The notes under the pieces were generated by a model that did no database searches, was not told the DNA's origin, and saw only the letters and a program-made list of their open reading frames with translations. A DNA stretch of 64,000 nucleotides, taken from the IMG/VR virus record IMGVR_UViG_3300028833_003520; one strand, written 5' to 3'. Position 1 is the stretch's first letter, and every line of letters begins with the position of its first letter. The translations under genes were made by a program, and so were the position numbers. This document shows positions 50,531-64,000 of the stretch, piece after piece. This stretch comes from a virus. Lineage: Duplodnaviria > Caudoviricetes.

Positions 50531-52195
50531 TTATTCTTCTGATGTAGTAACTGATGAATCATCAGTTGCAACTGTTGAAGCAACTCTCTGAAGACCTCTA
50601 AATACTTGAGTATTGGCGAGGTTCGGTGTGCAAAGTGCGGCATTGTCGTTGCCGTGATAATTTGCACGCATCCAATTCGTAAGTCCGTAAGTGGCTATCA
50701 TATATTCAGGTTTATCCATTCTGTGAGCGACTTTAACGGTGGTTTGTTTATCGCCATACCAGTTAGGGTCGTCTTTAACAACATTCAGCAAGTCATTGAT
50801 GAATGTGTTTTTGCCCTGAATTGCTCCTGAAGGCGAGTTCAATTTGAACCAAGCCTTGTAGAGTTCATATAAGAAGCCAAAAGGAAGAAGGTCCCAAGCG
50901 AGATTGTCTGATACTTCTCCCCAGAACTGACGAATCGGGTCATTAAATGACTTGTATTCGTCAAGAATGTTCTTACACGCTGTAGGTTCTGAAAGAACAT
51001 AGTAGTTCATATTGAGAACTTTTTTCATAACGTATTCAAGAACTTCGGGTCTGTGGAGATAATCATCTTTGATGTATCTACGCTCGTGACCTGTGAAGCA
51101 CTTTTCGAATGGTATAAAGAGTTGTCTTCTGTAGAAAGAGTCACTCTTATCTTTGATACGAGGGAATTCATTGAGACACTGCACCATAAAGCCCCAAAAC
51201 TGATAGGCTATAGGTGTTTTGAATTTACGGTTGATTTGAATAACATCATTCGTAATGACAGCCTTAACATTAGCGGCTTTGTCAATGAATGTACCGACAT
51301 CGTTTTCATCAACGATAATAGCGGTTGCTCTTGTTAATGGTTCGAGAACAAAGTCCTTACCAAACTCGGATAAAGGAATACTTGCGTATGCACCTGCCCC
51401 ACAGAGTTGTCGCATAAGTTCGCATAATGTTCCTTTACCGTTGTTACCTGTTTCTGAATAGAACCAGGCTGATTTGTTCCAACGGACGTTTGGTCTGATG
51501 ATTGCTCCTAATATTTCCCATATTACTTGAACGATTTCGGGGTCATCGGACAGGTCGTTTACCCAAGATTCAACGTCCCAATCAGTATCATCAATGACGT
51601 TATGTATGACGACATTGGTGGCATTGGGCTTGTAATTGACCTTTGACTTTGTAAGGAAAACATATTTAGGGTCGAAATTATATAACTGTTTATCAGCATA
51701 ATTAAATATGCCGTTGTTTACAGCAATTAAGTCAGGGTCAGTACACCTGTTAGTTCTTGGTACTCTGTCACGAAGAGCGATAATAACTTCTGAGAAGTCT
51801 TTGCTTGTCAGATTATAGTTAAACTGCCTTGCAAGTTTACGTAAAGATTCTTCTGAAGTTAGATATATTCCTTCATCTGGACCGTCATACTGGTATATAG
51901 CGAGTAGGTCATAGTCTGTGTCGGAGTTCTCTCCTGCACAGGCAATTTTACAGATGGGATAGATTTTAGCGAGGATAGCGGCGATTTGTGCGTTGCTGAG
52001 TGTATCAGGTATCTTCCATTTCATACCTTTATCAGCGACAGTATTATACTCGTCGAATTTGCTGTGAATAGCATCCAATAATCCTACTTCAATCTCTGCA
52101 ATCTCTGCTGCTGTGTATTGCTTAGTATCATCTAACGTCTGAATATAATCTTCAGTTACAGATGCAAGGACTTGATTCTTGGTGGTCAAGTCCAT
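50531..52195 (-). CDS. D5/P4-family primase-associated SF3 helicase
   Basis: IAVNNGI (D5_N), Walker A GNNGKGT, Walker B IVDE, CLN, RR..IPF. Confidence 0.9.
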   Translation of the reverse strand: MDLTTKNQVLASVTEDYIQTLDDTKQYTAAEIAEIEVGLLDAIHSKFDEYNTVADKGMKWKIPDTLSNAQIAAILAKIYPICKIACAGENSDTDYDLLAIYQYDGPDEGIYLTSEESLRKLARQFNYNLTSKDFSEVIIALRDRVPRTNRCTDPDLIAVNNGIFNYADKQLYNFDPKYVFLTKSKVNYKPNATNVVIHNVIDDTDWDVESWVNDLSDDPEIVQVIWEILGAIIRPNVRWNKSAWFYSETGNNGKGTLCELMRQLCGAGAYASIPLSEFGKDFVLEPLTRATAIIVDENDVGTFIDKAANVKAVITNDVIQINRKFKTPIAYQFWGFMVQCLNEFPRIKDKSDSFYRRQLFIPFEKCFTGHERRYIKDDYLHRPEVLEYVMKKVLNMNYYVLSEPTACKNILDEYKSFNDPIRQFWGEVSDNLAWDLLPFGFLYELYKAWFKLNSPSGAIQGKNTFINDLLNVVKDDPNWYGDKQTTVKVAHRMDKPEYMIATYGLTNWMRANYHGNDNAALCTPNLANTQVFRGLQRVASTVATDDSSVTTSEE

Positions 52196-56787: not shown

Positions 56788-57813
56788 TTAGTCTTCGACT
56801 AAGATGCCGTTACTCATATGGTAACCAGAAGGTGTTCCATACTTGTTCACATAGGATGATACACTCATCGTGTCTCCGCAGGAGCAAGTATAACCTGTTA
56901 TGGTTTTCTTGGTTACTGTCTTGGTCTCTGTACCTAACTGTTCGTAACCAACGATGACTTCCTCCTGGTACGTTTCAGTTGTTGTACCTACCTGAACCTT
57001 GTCTGTGTATGTGGATGCTGAACCTGTATTGTATCTGAGCCAATCTTTCATATTGTTCTTATCACTAAGGTCATCGTCCCACATACCGCTTGACTTCCAC
57101 TCGGCTCTACCGCCATTTTCCCACGCTACGGTTACATCACGACCATTGATATCGAACTGATGGTTCTCATATACAGGAACCTTCTTTGTCTTGGTCTGTG
57201 TTTCGTAAATGGGCTTATCGTAATCGTTAGTTGTACCGTCCTTGGCATACTTCTGTACTGTGACAGTTTCAGTTGTTGTACCGTATGTTGGTGTGTAACT
57301 GTGAGAATGTGCCTGTGTAGGTGCAGTAGTCGGCTCTGCCGTAGGTGTTGCTGTCGGTACAGGTGTCGGAGTGGATGTTGCCTGTGTTGTACCACTTGTA
57401 GGTGCAGTAGTGGGTGCTGTTGTCGGCGTATTTGTCGGTACAGGTGTAGGCGTTGCTGTAGCCTTAGTTGTACCGTTAGTCGGCTGAGTTGTGTTACCAC
57501 TACCACCGTTTGTGGTGCTATTTGTTCCACTGTTTGCTGATGAATTGTTGGTGCTTGAACCGATGGATTCATCTGTATAATCAGTAGAAATATCTACATC
57601 AGAAGCATTTGTGCTCTCATTTGTTTCTGATGTTGTGTTGCCACTTTCGATGGGCGTGCCGTCCTCGTTAGTGGCAATGGTCTCGGTTGTTGATACATCA
57701 ATGGGTGTATCGGTCTTGGTTGACTTGTTGCAGGAAACTACGAGAACGATTACTGCAACTATTGCTATCACGACCATTAAAGAGGCTGTGATTAAGAGAT
57801 ACTTCTTTTTCAT
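56788..57813 (-). CDS. Exported or membrane-anchored Thr/Pro-rich protein
   Basis: N-terminal hydrophobic helix, TPTP linker, HSHSY...C.CG C-terminal domain. Confidence 0.8.
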   Translation of the reverse strand: MKKKYLLITASLMVVIAIVAVIVLVVSCNKSTKTDTPIDVSTTETIATNEDGTPIESGNTTSETNESTNASDVDISTDYTDESIGSSTNNSSANSGTNSTTNGGSGNTTQPTNGTTKATATPTPVPTNTPTTAPTTAPTSGTTQATSTPTPVPTATPTAEPTTAPTQAHSHSYTPTYGTTTETVTVQKYAKDGTTNDYDKPIYETQTKTKKVPVYENHQFDINGRDVTVAWENGGRAEWKSSGMWDDDLSDKNNMKDWLRYNTGSASTYTDKVQVGTTTETYQEEVIVGYEQLGTETKTVTKKTITGYTCSCGDTMSVSSYVNKYGTPSGYHMSNGILVED

Positions 57814-58180
57814 AGTCTTAACTCCTTATTTATCAAAATAATCTTTGTTTTGTACTTTAATGAACTTCTTAAAAAGTTCATTCTAAATACACCTTCAAGG
57901 GTGGAATGGGCAACCGAACAGGTTGTAACTTCGCACGTAGATTTGTGTCAAATCCTCTAATCAGTATTGCTTGTCAAATGCACCAATTTGTCCAAGCAAT
58001 TATTAGTGAGTGCGAACGAACTTTGGGCTGCCGAACCCTTAATCAATTTTAGCACAAAGTTTGTACCAATTGTACCGATATTTGCTTCGAGAAGTCGGAG
58101 CAGAAGTGTCTTAAATTGACATCATTTTGTACTCATAAAATGGTACGGAAATGATGGCGTTTATCGGTGCAATCATTATA

Positions 58181-58357
58181 CGAAACTTGGTTTCGTTGAG
58201 GGCAACCCGAAGACAGTCCAGTGGACTGTTGAGGGCGAGATGCAAGGCATCGAGTGAGGGCTTTCGGAGCCTTTGGCGGAGAAAGTGCGAGCCTTCTCGG
58301 AAGGCGATGCAGGGATGTCGGCTATGCCGACCGCACCGTAAGGTGTGTCATCCCCCC
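58181..58357. other. Cluster of short GC-rich hairpins, mostly triloops (possible single-strand origin or ssDNA signal)
   Basis: Eight adjacent inverted repeats in about 175 nt. Confidence 0.55.
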
Positions 58358-59499
58358 TTATGCCCTTTTATTATTTTCGTCGTTTGAGCGTAAGAGAGAA
58401 CCGAAAATGTCGTTTCAACTAATAAACATAAGGCTTTGCCTTGTTGAAACGTACTAATAAAATCGGGGTGATACTTGTTGAAAATTTCAACATTGTTGAA
58501 GAACCCCCGATTTTATTCACGATTAGCGTGATTAAATTACACAACTTGTTGCGTATTTTGACACGCTGTTGAAATTCACCTGCATTTGGGCGTATTCCGT
58601 ATCGGAATGGCACAAATGGCTCCTGTAGGCGTATATGTTCCCCTTGGGACGTGTACGCTCTGGAGCAATATTGGCGGTGTCCAAAAGCAGACCCAACGGG
58701 TGCGATTGGATGCCAATATTGCGACACCTTGTTAGTCCTATTTGTGTACCGTAAGCGTAAGCGAAGTTTGGTACAAACTTGGTACACAGTTGGTGCAATC
58801 ATAATGAGGTTCGGTCGGTGAATTTTTCACCATTATTTTGCCGAAGTTTGCAACGAAGAAACGGAACAAAGTGAATACGGTTCGGGCATACTGAAAGCAA
58901 AATGAAACTGCTGTTCTTACGCTACGAACTGGTCGTGCCAGTTGCCTCAGTGTAATGCACTGTTAATCATCTAACGCAATGACAATAATTGCGTTGTTTG
59001 GGGAACATCGTGACTTAGTTATTTTTTTTTTTTTGTAATTCGTTCTTTGTTAATCGTCGGGAGCATCGTGACCGACAGTCTGTGTTCCTAATAAGCAGAA
59101 ACTTCTCGTTGTATGTACGAGTTACTCCCTTCCCTGTCTCCAGAAGGCTGAAGAAGTTTTTGCTGTAAAATACGAATAATTACTATTCCAAATTTCAGTT
59201 TATCTGCCAAAGTTCTTTGTGGTGGATGTATTGAATAGTTAATCAATATTCTTTTCACCATCACGTTAAATATGTGCACATTACCTACCCTGCTGGTCTA
59301 TATCCGATTTTATCGGGCTTTGGTATGTTGCACTTAATCCATTTGGTACAAAATGCTGCAAGGTCAACTTATCTAAATTGGTACATAATTGTACCGAAGC
59401 CAAAATTCGTTTCAGGATTTTGATGCTCAATATTTAGTTCAATTATGAGAACTAATGAAATGCTTTGTACGGTTAAAGAATAAAAACCAATAGGTATCA

Positions 59500-60130
59500 C
59501 ATCGTGATAGCGGTTTTGACACAAAATGTCCCAAGAACGACCTTGGGAGTGAGAAGACATTGTGCAAAAAATTGGTTTGTTTCTCAGTACAAAGGTAGGA
59601 CTGAGCGTGTCTGAGTGGTGGGCTTTGCCCAACCAAATCAGAACAAAACGAAGGCTAAAGCGATTTTTAGTTATTCATATATTAAGGGGAGAATAATCTT
59701 ACTGTATAATCTCCGCTTTATCGGGTGAATTTAGGCTGGCATAAATTCGGGGTTGTATAGTTACTCAGGCTTGCATAAAAATCGCAAGCCATCCTTTAAG
59801 ATTATTCGCCTAATCATAATACGAGACTGAATTATCTAACTTACGATGTCATCGTTTGTTTTCTCGGAAATCCAAAATTCTTGATGGGATTCACTGTATT
59901 TGTGGACCATTTTAGTGAATACCGAGATAGAATCATTTTCTGATATAACCGTATTTTGGTGATTAGTCTGATACGATTCATCGTGTCTTAGGGACGACAA
60001 AATGTGGTAACAATTTGCAAAATTTTACCACCAGTGGTCGTTCCCTGGAAATAATCGTTGGGTCTTAATTATTCGAATGAAGACATTCTTTGCAAGAATA
60101 AGCAACGTACCAACAGCGTAGTGAAAAGAA
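59500..60130 (+). ncRNA. Putative structured ncRNA region A (boundaries approximate)
   Basis: No credible ORF; many stems with + strand G-U pairs. Confidence 0.45.
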
Positions 60131-60409
60131 GAGTTAATCTGTCACCAAAATGGGTATTATTTGCTATTTAATAATGCTTTATTAAATATTAAATAATGAA
60201 TTATTATCTATTTAATAAGTAAATAATTATTAGATATTAAGTATTAAATAAATATTTAATAATTCTCGAAAATTATGTAAGCCCGATTGCGTGATTTTCG
60301 GTCCATCATTTTGTAGCATTATTAAGTTATATAAAATGTATTTAATAATGAATTAAAATGATATATTTAATCTATTTAATATGTGTAGTCTAATGCTCTA
60401 TTCTGAATG

Positions 60410-61190
60410 AAAAACCTCGCCGTCTGTATAGCCATACCGACGGGGTTTTGTACGCAGTTTATACGGCACTTCTCGTTGTCCAAACCGTAAGACGGAGATG
60501 TTCGTGAACATCGAGGGTGTTTGGAAATGGAGATATATTTAATCGTTGACGGTTCTACAATCAGGTTCCGTGAGTGGCGGTCAACTTGCTTGACCCCGAT
60601 GAACGGATGTGATTGGAGAAATACTGGCAACTCCAGGTGGCTTGCCAACTGGAGAAGCCAGTATAGTCGCATAATCGTTCGTCTCCAAGAGATTCCCATA
60701 AAAATATTACAAAGGAGAAAAAGAATGCCTTTCAAGTTTGCAGGGGAAGGAAACGAGTACAAGTTTACTCATTTGTGACGCAAACCCCTGCAGACCTGAA
60801 AGGTTGCTTTTGGAAACACGGTGGAGCAACGTGGAACGGTGCTTTCAAAAGACATTCGGTTTCCGACGATTTTTTGTCGAAGGTGTTTTATCTGATTGTC
60901 CTCGACAATCAAGGAAAATGCCGAAAGAGTAATTTAGTATATTCGCAGAATATAATAAATCAAAAAATTTAGGAAATTTTCGACGACTAATATTTTTCAG
61001 ATGGTATTCAATCTGCTTTACAGAGAAATCAAGGATTTCGTACCAAACCTGTGAAACGTATTTGTTATTCAATATGATGCGTGTTCCACAGGTAACTGGG
61101 CTGTAGAGCGTCTGACTGCGACCTTGGATGAAATGCAAGGGCAGTCAGTAGTGTAGCGATAAATGGAGACCTAACGTCCAAAGATGGAGT
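60410..61190 (+). ncRNA. Putative large structured ncRNA B (boundaries approximate)
   Basis: Nested stems with + strand G-U pairs; downstream of an AT-rich tract. Confidence 0.55.
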
Positions 61191-61196
61191 GACGGA

Positions 61197-61244
61197 AAAG
61201 AAAAAAAAAAATGGACTGACTACCATTAAGGTAGCCAATCCATT
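61197..61244 (-). terminator. Intrinsic terminator of the 44-aa gene
   Basis: aatgga.tg.ctacc / ggtag.ca.tccatt stem with U11 on the minus strand. Confidence 0.8.
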
Positions 61245-61262
61245 CTGTTAACTTGTGTTTAC

Positions 61263-61397
61263 TCAATCTTCATCGTAGTTGGGCATCGGTGCCATTGCGA
61301 TTGCCTCAGTAAGTGAATGTGCTTCAACGACTGCGATTACGAAACCGTACTTATCTGTTACTGTGAATGTCTGAAGACCATTATCTGAACTTGCCAT
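61263..61397 (-). CDS. 44-aa protein (not in ORF track)
   Basis: AAGGAGG RBS; MASSDNGLQTFTVTDKYGFVIAVVEAHSLTEAIAMAPMPNYDED; own terminator. Confidence 0.8.
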   Translation of the reverse strand: MASSDNGLQTFTVTDKYGFVIAVVEAHSLTEAIAMAPMPNYDED

Positions 61398-61499
61398 CTC
61401 AAGTTCCTCCTTATATTGTATTTTTGAAGAAAAATCTTCAAGGGTGTTATGAGCGACCGAACAGGTCGCCTGTTACATAAACTCTCTCAAAAACTTAAA

Positions 61500-63860
61500 G
61501 GATGATTTCTATAAGAAGGAATATAAACATCAGACTCGCCTGAAGACTTGTCGGAAGAAAGAAGTCTGCAGTAAAGGAAAGGCAGGCTCGCCTGTAGTGA
61601 TAACGAAAGCAAGAAGTCTGACTTTAAGAATGGGAATAAGGATGACTCGCCTTCTGTTTGCACAAACGAAGAAAGAAGTCAGACTTGTTCATCGGGGTTC
61701 GTTCCTCTTGCGGTGTACCACAGATGAAGCGAACTCTGATAGGCAAAATATTTGACCACTATCTTGCTACGTCAATCGTGTAGTCGCAGAGGATGGTGAT
61801 GTAGGCTTTCGTTAAGAAAGGCATAAGAACCTACCGCTGCGTAAACGATATGTTTTGCGATAATTATTTAATAGTCTGGCGTGGTCGCTTTTTCACCTTT
61901 GGTGGAAAGGAGCGACCTTTAAGCCGCAAGCGAAAGCATAAGAGTGCGTTCTGAAGAAATTGGCTAAAGGACAATTTCCTCTATTGGTCAAATATAAAGC
62001 CTATGAAGAAGGGACGAACTTCTTCTCATTATCTGACTCGTCAGTGTTGTTTCCTTAAGAGCGTGGATTCTGCTCCACTGACCGAACGACTGAGCCAGCG
62101 AAGGAAAGTGAGAGTGGGCAGAATGGAACTGCTCGAAGGAAACAAGTAATTGGTTAATAACAAGGTTCGCTATATAAACGATATTCAAATTGTTCCGAAC
62201 CGATTATGAAGTTCGCTCTGTTGCCAAAGGATTTGCTTGTCAAAGCCTTGGCTGTACTTAATCTCGTTGAACTGGAAACCAACCCTACCCTTAGTTGATT
62301 TCCGTCACCAAGACTACTTAATCTTCAACGATACATAAAGAACTTAGGTTAGACTATGATTATTTTGCTGTAAAAGATAAATCTATAAGATTTATCTCGT
62401 TAATCGAGGAAAGATTCAGTTATTCAACCGACCTGTTTTGAGTTTTCCGAAGATAACGGGAAACCGAGTCTGAAAGACGAATTTGCCTTATTTTCGGAAA
62501 ACAATGTTGACACTAATTGTTAATCACAGGTTATCAATCTTATACTTTGAGATTGTGCGTGTTTATCACGCAATTGCAGAGCAATTAGTTCTTCTAAACC
62601 TCTCGAATAGGTAACTTTTATCTTTGGCGGTATAAAAGTTAACTATGTTACATCAATTGTTTGTTAATCGGTGCTTATCAATCGGTAAGTTATAAGTGTT
62701 ACAAAAACCGTTATCAGTTTTTGATTTATCAAGTAGGTGAAGGCACCCTGTCGTGGGCGTAATTATATGTAGCCCTACAGAAGTGGTGCCTGAACCAAAA
62801 TAAGGATAAAGCGAGCCGTGCACGACTCCTTTATCCGCTATCACAGATTCGAATAAAACGAATCGTATTGAGGCTTTTGTCTTAAAGGATAGTGCCTAAC
62901 TCGCCTGAAGCGTTGCGTCAAGAAAGAAGTTAGGCACTTTAGTTTGACACGTCTTGGCTACGATTCATCGTGTCAGGTTGAAAATGAGTCCAGGCGTAGC
63001 CTTGACGCATTTTATTGTTACAAAGGAGTGCGATTGCATATCGCACCAACTTTAAGTGTCAATTGTTCACTATAAACTTTTATAAAAAGTTGTTAAACCT
63101 TTGCACGGATAGTCTTTTTACGAGTTTATCGTGCCGTTTTCTACGGACAAGGCACACTGATAAGTGTGACAGGACGTGGAAAATGATGAATAATGAGTTT
63201 GACTTAGGCACAGAGAGCAATAGCGAACGCCGTGACTAACAAAGAACGAATGAAATAAGAGGCAAGCATAAATGTGAAGCCGTATAGATGCAAAGTGTTT
63301 TACGAGGGGCTTGGGAAACAATGACTTATCTTCTTATCTACGATTTATCGTGCAAAAACTCCTCGGCGTAAACTCTGCTGTACGAAGAATGAGAAAGCAG
63401 GTGCCTCGCTGAGGAGTTTTGTTGAAATTAAGTATGGAGATAGCATCAATCACGTAGTTTTACTGCGTAGGTATTTATTTTATCATTGAAAGACGATAAC
63501 GGAATACGTTCATCAAAAGAAGCCCATACACGAGGCTTCGCCTATTAAGTCATTGTTTCTTTTTACTGGTGATTAGTGATTCAATTTGCACTATGTCGGG
63601 ATTTGTCTTGTGCTACGGAGCCTCTCGGCGAAGGTTCAGGACGAAGAGTCACTATATTTTGCGACAATCTTGCAAAATTGGCTCCCAACGACTTTGGTGA
63701 GAGTTGGGGTGGGGTAAACGGTATTTATGACTTGTGACTCGTACACAATGTCAAATAAGTGATTTCGATGTTATTGCTGCTGGTCAGCAAATTATTAACT
63801 GTGACAGTTAATAATTTTGGTGTAATCAAAACGGAGTTGGAAGCCAACTGTTCAGTGCTT
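61500..63860 (+). ncRNA. Putative very large structured ncRNA(s), region C (boundaries approximate)
   Basis: Dense stems, GNRA loops, 14-16 bp helices including long-range ones, repeated modules, + strand G-U pairs. Confidence 0.6.
61531..61681 (+). repeat. Three tandem stem-loop modules RCT-CGCCT...AG-(A/C)AAGA-AGT; fourth copy at 62892-62937
   Basis: Directly visible with co-varying outer stems. Confidence 0.8.
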
Positions 63861-63873
63861 GAGAAATCTTAAG

Positions 63874-63918
63874 AAAAAAAAAGCCTACAATATCGTCGCA
63901 GACGGTATCATAGGCTTT
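63874..63918 (-). terminator. Intrinsic terminator of a gene beyond the right edge
   Basis: aaagccta...taggcttt stem with U9 on the minus strand. Confidence 0.7.
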
Positions 63919-64000
63919 AAGGCTTTGTTAGATAGAAGTCAAATTCCTTGTTTTATGCTGTATGGGTGTAAACAACAAAACTTCTATAAACACTTTAGTT

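Follow-up and report, generated by a model that had tools for sequence, protein, structure and literature searches.

Near the right end of the window, the term used here for the whole 64,000-nucleotide (nt) stretch of IMG/VR virus record IMGVR_UViG_3300028833_003520 (Duplodnaviria; Caudoviricetes), a segment of 0.4 to 0.6 kb carries a real and statistically unusual long-range fold, the helices of which are jointly beyond chance. The segment lies at the right-hand end of an island of more than 5 kb, beginning near 58.8 kb and reaching the end of the window, in which no open reading frame (ORF) exceeds 128 amino acids (aa) under code 11, code 4, or codes reading TAG or TAA as glutamine. Our preferred reading, with a probability of about 0.4, is that the plus strand at about 63.20 to 63.82 kb specifies a noncoding RNA of about 0.6 kb and of a new class, or else one domain of a longer noncoding transcript. 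Its 5' and 3' parts would zip into an interrupted stem of about 60 bp (63258-63328 with 63546-63625) that would present a five-way junction of the hairpins P2, P3, P4 (in either of two alternative forms), and P5, followed by a three-hairpin 3' domain and a 9-bp end-closing helix. The most likely role of such a molecule would be that of a structural or protein-docking RNA of a mobile element; we infer its transcription, its ends, and its function. The features of the segment and its immediate flanks are as follows.

63166-63194, plus strand: weak sigma-70-like promoter match (GTGACA, 17 nt, AATAAT; 10 of 12), a consensus match only.
63216-63224, plus strand: 5' arm of the end-closing helix, which has a pair probability of 0.99 when 591 nt are folded and of 0.92 in a 1.2-kb context and is lost in the minimum free energy (MFE) structure of 6.3 kb.
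63258-63328, plus strand: 5' arm of the long stem, including the P1 arm 63313-63328.
63339-63352, plus strand: TACGA-N4-TCGTG hairpin, one of five copies in the island; ensemble probability 0.13.
63355-63420, plus strand: P2, whose 14-bp helix encloses a 5-bp hairpin and a purine-rich loop of 16 nt; 0.87.
63452-63468, plus strand: P3, a 7-bp hairpin with a UUU loop; 0.94.
63480-63514, plus strand: P4 region of mutually exclusive hairpins, either GAAA-capped at 63480-63499 (one A-C mismatch; 0.10) or at 63495-63514.
63519-63539, plus strand: P5, a GC-rich 7-bp hairpin; 0.99.
63546-63625, plus strand: 3' arm of the long stem, including the P1 arm 63546-63561.
63642-63767, plus strand: 3' domain with hairpins at 63656-63678, 63681-63715, and 63728-63753 (0.88 to 0.95) and a weak closing helix (0.3 to 0.5).
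63770-63778, plus strand: 3' arm of the end-closing helix, in competition with a local hairpin at 63773-63789.
63789-63817, plus strand: AT-rich hairpin of 13 perfect base pairs (all 13 Watson-Crick), a candidate weak terminator whose 3' arm runs into TTTTGG.
63903-63883, minus strand: terminator facing the segment from the right, with an 8-bp G-U-rich stem and then nine T.

Positions 63200-63790 fold on the plus strand to -176.9 kcal/mol (z -3.68), which none of 100 shuffles equaled; the corresponding values for the minus strand are -133.0 kcal/mol and z -1.77. When 63255-63630 is folded alone, z is -5.04 on the plus strand versus -3.16 on the minus strand. Local 240-nt windows over 63.1 to 63.7 kb are unremarkable (z -0.75 to -2.7), and the excess stability therefore resides in the long-range pairs. 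The interrupted stem, which encloses the branched core, is the chief of these. Its two arms form a duplex of about -56 to -57 kcal/mol that ranks first among about 4,240 positions of the same geometry on the plus strand (mean -26.1, standard deviation [SD] 5.8) and has no counterpart in the minus-strand top 15 when the same two segments are slid along the window; because the geometry was picked after the stem had been seen, the rank is not a clean P value. A seemingly similar stem at 58636 was rejected, since its high duplex score is due to strong local hairpins and its architecture differs.

A preliminary description of this DNA had pictured a nested, multidomain RNA of about 570 nt, organized by a 16-bp helix at 63313-63328/63546-63561 (P1) and assigned to the ROOL/GOLLD size class. 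The helices that it quoted all occur in the sequence where it placed them, and energy statistics support a plus-strand fold of about 570 to 620 nt, although one less ornate than ROOL: the MFE folds contain about two multi-stem junctions, as drawn by folding methods that cannot predict pseudoknots. P1 consists of 14 Watson-Crick and two G-U pairs and is exceeded by the stem of which it is a part. In a 1.2-kb context its pair probability is 0.90, the other stem segments lie between 0.82 and 0.96, P3 and P5 hold the values listed above, and the proposed 14-bp inner stem is the P2 helix (63355-63368/63407-63420; 0.87). The 9-bp outer helix 63216-63224/63770-63778 also forms, and the rival local hairpin suggested for it exists. 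Other proposed pairings fared less well. The TACGA and GAAA hairpins are present in the sequence but are minority forms, with probabilities of 0.13 and 0.10; gtgact at 63232 is complementary to agtcac at 63647, yet in the 1.2-kb context the pairing reaches just 0.10; and 63262-63273 does not pair with 63601-63611 in the proposed register, a shifted register forming instead. In a 6.3-kb fold, the inner stem (63280-63328/63546-63599) and the core hairpins alone persist.

Two further features favor the plus strand. The MFE stem includes seven G-U pairs and no A-C 1x1 mismatches. Of the bases left unpaired on the plus strand, 40% are A and 12% C, a make-up that resembles that of structured RNAs; on the minus strand, 29% are C and 9% G.

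Protein coding was ruled out. No ORF in the segment exceeds 74 aa, the plus strand downstream of it contains none above 53 aa, Pfam gave no match, and none of 10 ORFs was present in a collection of 15 billion proteins. Related loci were retrieved through a RecJ-like protein encoded upstream in the window, scans with which yielded 44 loci in metagenome contigs (L001 to L044; 34 to 66% identity) and seven more distant ones in genome and viral collections. Decayed genes were rejected after a tblastx comparison with 48 related loci returned nothing. A miniature inverted-repeat transposable element, or an inverted-repeat element derived from an insertion sequence, was likewise rejected: further copies of the arms were sought in the window, the related loci, phages, and plasmids, and none were found. 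A self-search of 63200-63800 against the window recovered nothing apart from the segment, the P1 arms within it, and a single 15-nt complement at 59038-59052.

That complement is perfect to 63237-63251 and matches at 21 of 25 positions when extended (59031-59055/63234-63258). The two copies are spaced 4.2 kb apart, and the right one lies directly 5' of the long stem. They could reflect very long-range pairing, a contact in trans, or the inverted ends of a 4.2-kb segment.

ROOL and GOLLD have recently been shown to build RNA-only cages and often stand beside tRNA genes or tRNA islands of phages and prophages; we know of no function established for either. The segment fits them in size, but covariance-model scans with the ROOL and GOLLD models gave no match. 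The segment belongs to no described family in Rfam 15, which returned nothing at gathering score in the window, at E ≤ 1 in 58000-64000, or at E ≤ 10 with the laxest filters in 63100-63950. The leftovers were chance-level snoRNA and leader matches far under gathering scores, and covariance models for OLE, raiA, HEARO, group I and II introns, and riboswitches had no match. As a positive control, the same scan scored GOLLD (RF02032; gathering score, 150) at 173.4 bits in the related locus L021 and at 182.6 bits in L024. ARAGORN detected no tRNA in the window.

ROOL RNAs average 581 nt, contain six multi-stem junctions and three pseudoknots, and usually lie near tRNAs (Weinberg et al. 2017, PMC5737381); ROOL forms an octameric nanocage (bioRxiv 10.1101/2024.12.08.627333). 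The segment described here shares with ROOL a size class, a rumen origin, a place on a mobile element, and the lack of coding potential. It differs in giving no model match at any threshold, in a predicted fold of about two junctions rather than six, and in its lack of a nearby tRNA and of any conserved relatives found. With GOLLD it has in common that it would be a large folded RNA of phage-like or plasmid-like elements, and relatives of the element have GOLLD next to the same RecJ-like gene. In those relatives, however, GOLLD lies upstream of the RecJ-like gene and on the opposite strand, and the window has neither an RF02032 match nor a tRNA array near the segment.

On the plus strand, the promoter-like match at 63166-63194, the hairpin and T-run at 63789-63818, and then the convergent minus-strand terminator at 63903-63883 would together frame a unit of about 620 nt whose ends pair. 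The hairpin is not among the sites listed by the terminator scan, which needs at least three G-C pairs.

Considerable evidence also weighs against such an RNA. The promoter and terminator matches on the plus strand are weak, and promoter-like sites are no more frequent in the island than in shuffled sequence (18 observed, 14.2 expected). Signals of the other strand lie inside the proposed domain: P5 read on the minus strand (63539-63519) and followed by TTTTGATG makes a terminator-like site, and an extended -10 element, TGATAAAAT, occurs at 63485-63477, a motif that is not enriched in the window (20 observed, 16.3 expected). The outer helices swap partners in larger folding contexts. In a strand-neutral alignment of the arms, 48 of 76 positions are identical at the DNA level, with 15 transversion mismatches and 13 gaps; the nine G-T versus three A-C mismatches do not differ significantly, and the island-wide strand-neutral helix count of four G-T versus two A-C is too small to decide. 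The plus strand is rich in G and T (GC skew, +0.11), which by itself favors G-U pairing and for which shuffles control partly. R1, a single-sequence covariance model built on the core (262 positions, 63 pairs), finds no match in the 51 related loci (821 kb in total) or among five genomes or records (G001 to G005), among which are two complete relatives of 150 kb and 192 kb. Sequence shared with the island was not detected by blastn, by nhmmer (L001 to L044), or by tblastx (48 loci). These searches retrieved no homologue.

Many of these points would be expected if there were no selected long-range structure at all and the segment were a mosaic of small independent units, that is, local hairpins, small RNA cassettes, or terminators, some of them read on the minus strand, in a fast-evolving spacer, the stem being a fortuitous or decaying inverted repeat. 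Minus-strand signals inside the domain, imperfect arms with an inconclusive G-T to A-C ratio, and a sequence undetectable in relatives all agree with this, as do local windows at -0.75 to -2.7, compared with -1.1 for coding sequence; by our own estimate, about 0.2 perfect 14-bp inverted repeats with both arms inside 600 nt should occur per 64 kb. Such a mosaic does not readily account for the whole stem, which beyond its 14-bp core is the top long-range duplex of the window at about 5 SD from the mean, nor for a z score of -5.0 for the 376-nt fold with the minus strand clearly worse. A decaying repeat should, moreover, show mostly transitions, but transversion mismatches are equally common here, a pattern closer to that of short helices built in series than to that of a degraded palindrome. 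We regard a mosaic as possible, if on the unlikely side.

The fold might instead act in single-stranded DNA during replication or transfer, as an initiation site, a single-strand origin, or a site like Frpo. Frpo and ssi are single-stranded DNA promoters that reportedly occur in plasmid leading regions (Masai and Arai 1997; PMC11541004). The segment is like them a long imperfect hairpin, strand dependent, on a mobile element; islands downstream of the RecJ-like gene can hold origin-like repeats (60150-60400 in the window; iterons in L012), and the oriented small hairpins retain their T-G closing pair. With DNA parameters the plus strand still reaches z -3.02, but the minus strand is close behind at -2.53, so that the plus-strand preference is an effect of the RNA parameters. 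The core is also multibranched rather than a simple hairpin, with A-rich unpaired bases typical of RNA. Frpo needs a -35/-10 pair in its duplex stem and an ORF directly downstream on the same strand (PMC11541004); no promoter-like pair was found within 63258-63328 or 63546-63625, and no plus-strand ORF follows. A role in single-stranded DNA is improbable in our estimation. Far less probable still is a highly diverged ROOL or GOLLD copy: the size class, the paired ends, and the occurrence of GOLLD in relatives speak for one, but the failure of both models even at E ≤ 10, with a tool that recovers GOLLD at 173 to 183 bits, together with the lack of a nearby tRNA and a predicted fold with far fewer junctions than ROOL, largely refutes it.

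The TACGA hairpin that sits just inside P1 belongs to a small family. TACGA-N4/5-TCGTG occurs five times, at 58923, 59972, 62959, 63119, and 63339, with every copy on the plus strand, versus 0.18 expected. All copies are confined to the island (58.9 to 63.4 kb of the window), and the 48 related loci hold a single match. The constant T-G closing pair speaks for recognition of a single strand, and it may be that one element-specific factor docks at all copies of the hairpin. Paralogous units around the five hairpins were considered and rejected, as their contexts cannot be aligned past the hairpin; the matches of R1 within the island are driven by the hairpin alone.

As it stands, the segment is an orphan, an unproven candidate for a new large noncoding RNA outside the described families. 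It is conceivable, although we think it rather doubtful, that it is the first member of a third class of large folded RNA in this GOLLD-carrying family of rumen and gut elements, with an architecture of its own in the long closing stem and five-way junction; an RNA of that class might assemble with its own copies or with an element-specific hairpin-binding protein. Were there indeed a new class on this element, it would suggest that replicons of this kind employ several large RNAs. A family of elements with GOLLD or ROOL plus further large folded noncoding stretches would be a natural comparison set.

The window resembles part of a large mobile element; its genes include those for a D5-type primase-helicase, a RecJ-like nuclease, NrdD, an integrase, and an exonuclease. 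One public contig, 243,504 bp long, encodes the identical RecJ-like protein. The element is of rumen origin and about 243 kb in size, and the window end probably lies near the end of that contig. The minus-strand terminator at 63874-63903 implies a minus-strand unit entering from beyond the window end. Among the other features of the window are the following.

50531-52195: D5-like primase-helicase gene, upstream of the RecJ-like gene.
61263-61397, minus strand: gene for a 44-aa protein, the sole convincing gene of the island, followed by a terminator.
61246-61208, minus strand: strong terminator of the 44-aa gene, a 17-bp hairpin plus T10.

Two conservative variants of the 44-aa protein are found on other contigs. 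Since this gene is real and has its own minus-strand terminator, the island is not one continuous plus-strand transcript.

Closer relatives of the element do exist, as variants of the RecJ-like and 44-aa proteins with at least 90% identity lie on contigs of 8 to 20 kb. Searches for homologues returned nothing from phages and plasmids (blastn), from viral contigs (DNA word, a 341-aa protein, and alignment of the 44-aa protein), or from genome contigs (the 341-aa protein). In the related loci, a syntenic block encodes a 1233-aa protein, D5, RecJ, and a CAAX protease, and ORF-free, strongly folded islands occur about as far downstream of the RecJ-like gene as in the window. Their known contents and that of the gap upstream of the gene are these.

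L021:9044-9447 and L024:9055-9455, minus strand: GOLLD, in the ORF-free gap that separates the D5-like primase-helicase gene from the RecJ-like gene.
L021:17325-19898, minus strand: array of 23 tRNAs that constitutes the ORF-free island downstream of the RecJ-like gene; likewise in L020 and L023.
L012:19809-20176 (the same as L049): TGGTCA/TGGTTA iterons with an 11-bp period in three clusters, within a 3.1-kb ORF-free island of a complete 192.5-kb relative.

GOLLD was absent from L001, L005, L012, L016, L038, and L039 and from the equivalent gap of the window (52.2 to 53.9 kb, 31% GC). Shorter tRNA arrays are present in L024 (nine tRNAs), L032 (seven), and L034, and the iteron clusters of L012 look like a replication origin. 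Because island content varies among relatives in this way, we conclude that this part of the replicon collects RNA genes and origin-like repeats and turns over fast. An ORF-free block at a syntenic distance in L039 (19452-20397) was rejected as a coding region broken by homopolymer frameshifts, as was its like in L044; in L018 and L019 the corresponding sequence is coding. Homopolymer indels in BNJS contigs thus make the ORF-free gaps of those assemblies unreliable.

Across the island, local structure is pronounced, with a mean z of about -2.8 for 240-nt windows versus -1.1 (SD 1.3) in coding controls. The most extreme is at 60480-60960 (z -3.6 to -7.9 on both strands), adjoining an AT-rich block of 22- to 33-nt repeats and inverted repeats at 60150-60400. 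Strong folding on both strands (z -4 to -7) also marks 57600-58800, which covers a 127-aa ORF (58419-58802); the protein collection lacks its exact product and Pfam gave no match, and the ORF may therefore not be a gene. Finally, a hairpin module of about 38 nt is repeated at 61531-61568, 61583-61620, about 61640-61682, and 62896-62933 (repeat-search families D2 and D4), with a constant internal CTCGCC...AAGAAAGAAGT and stems that vary.

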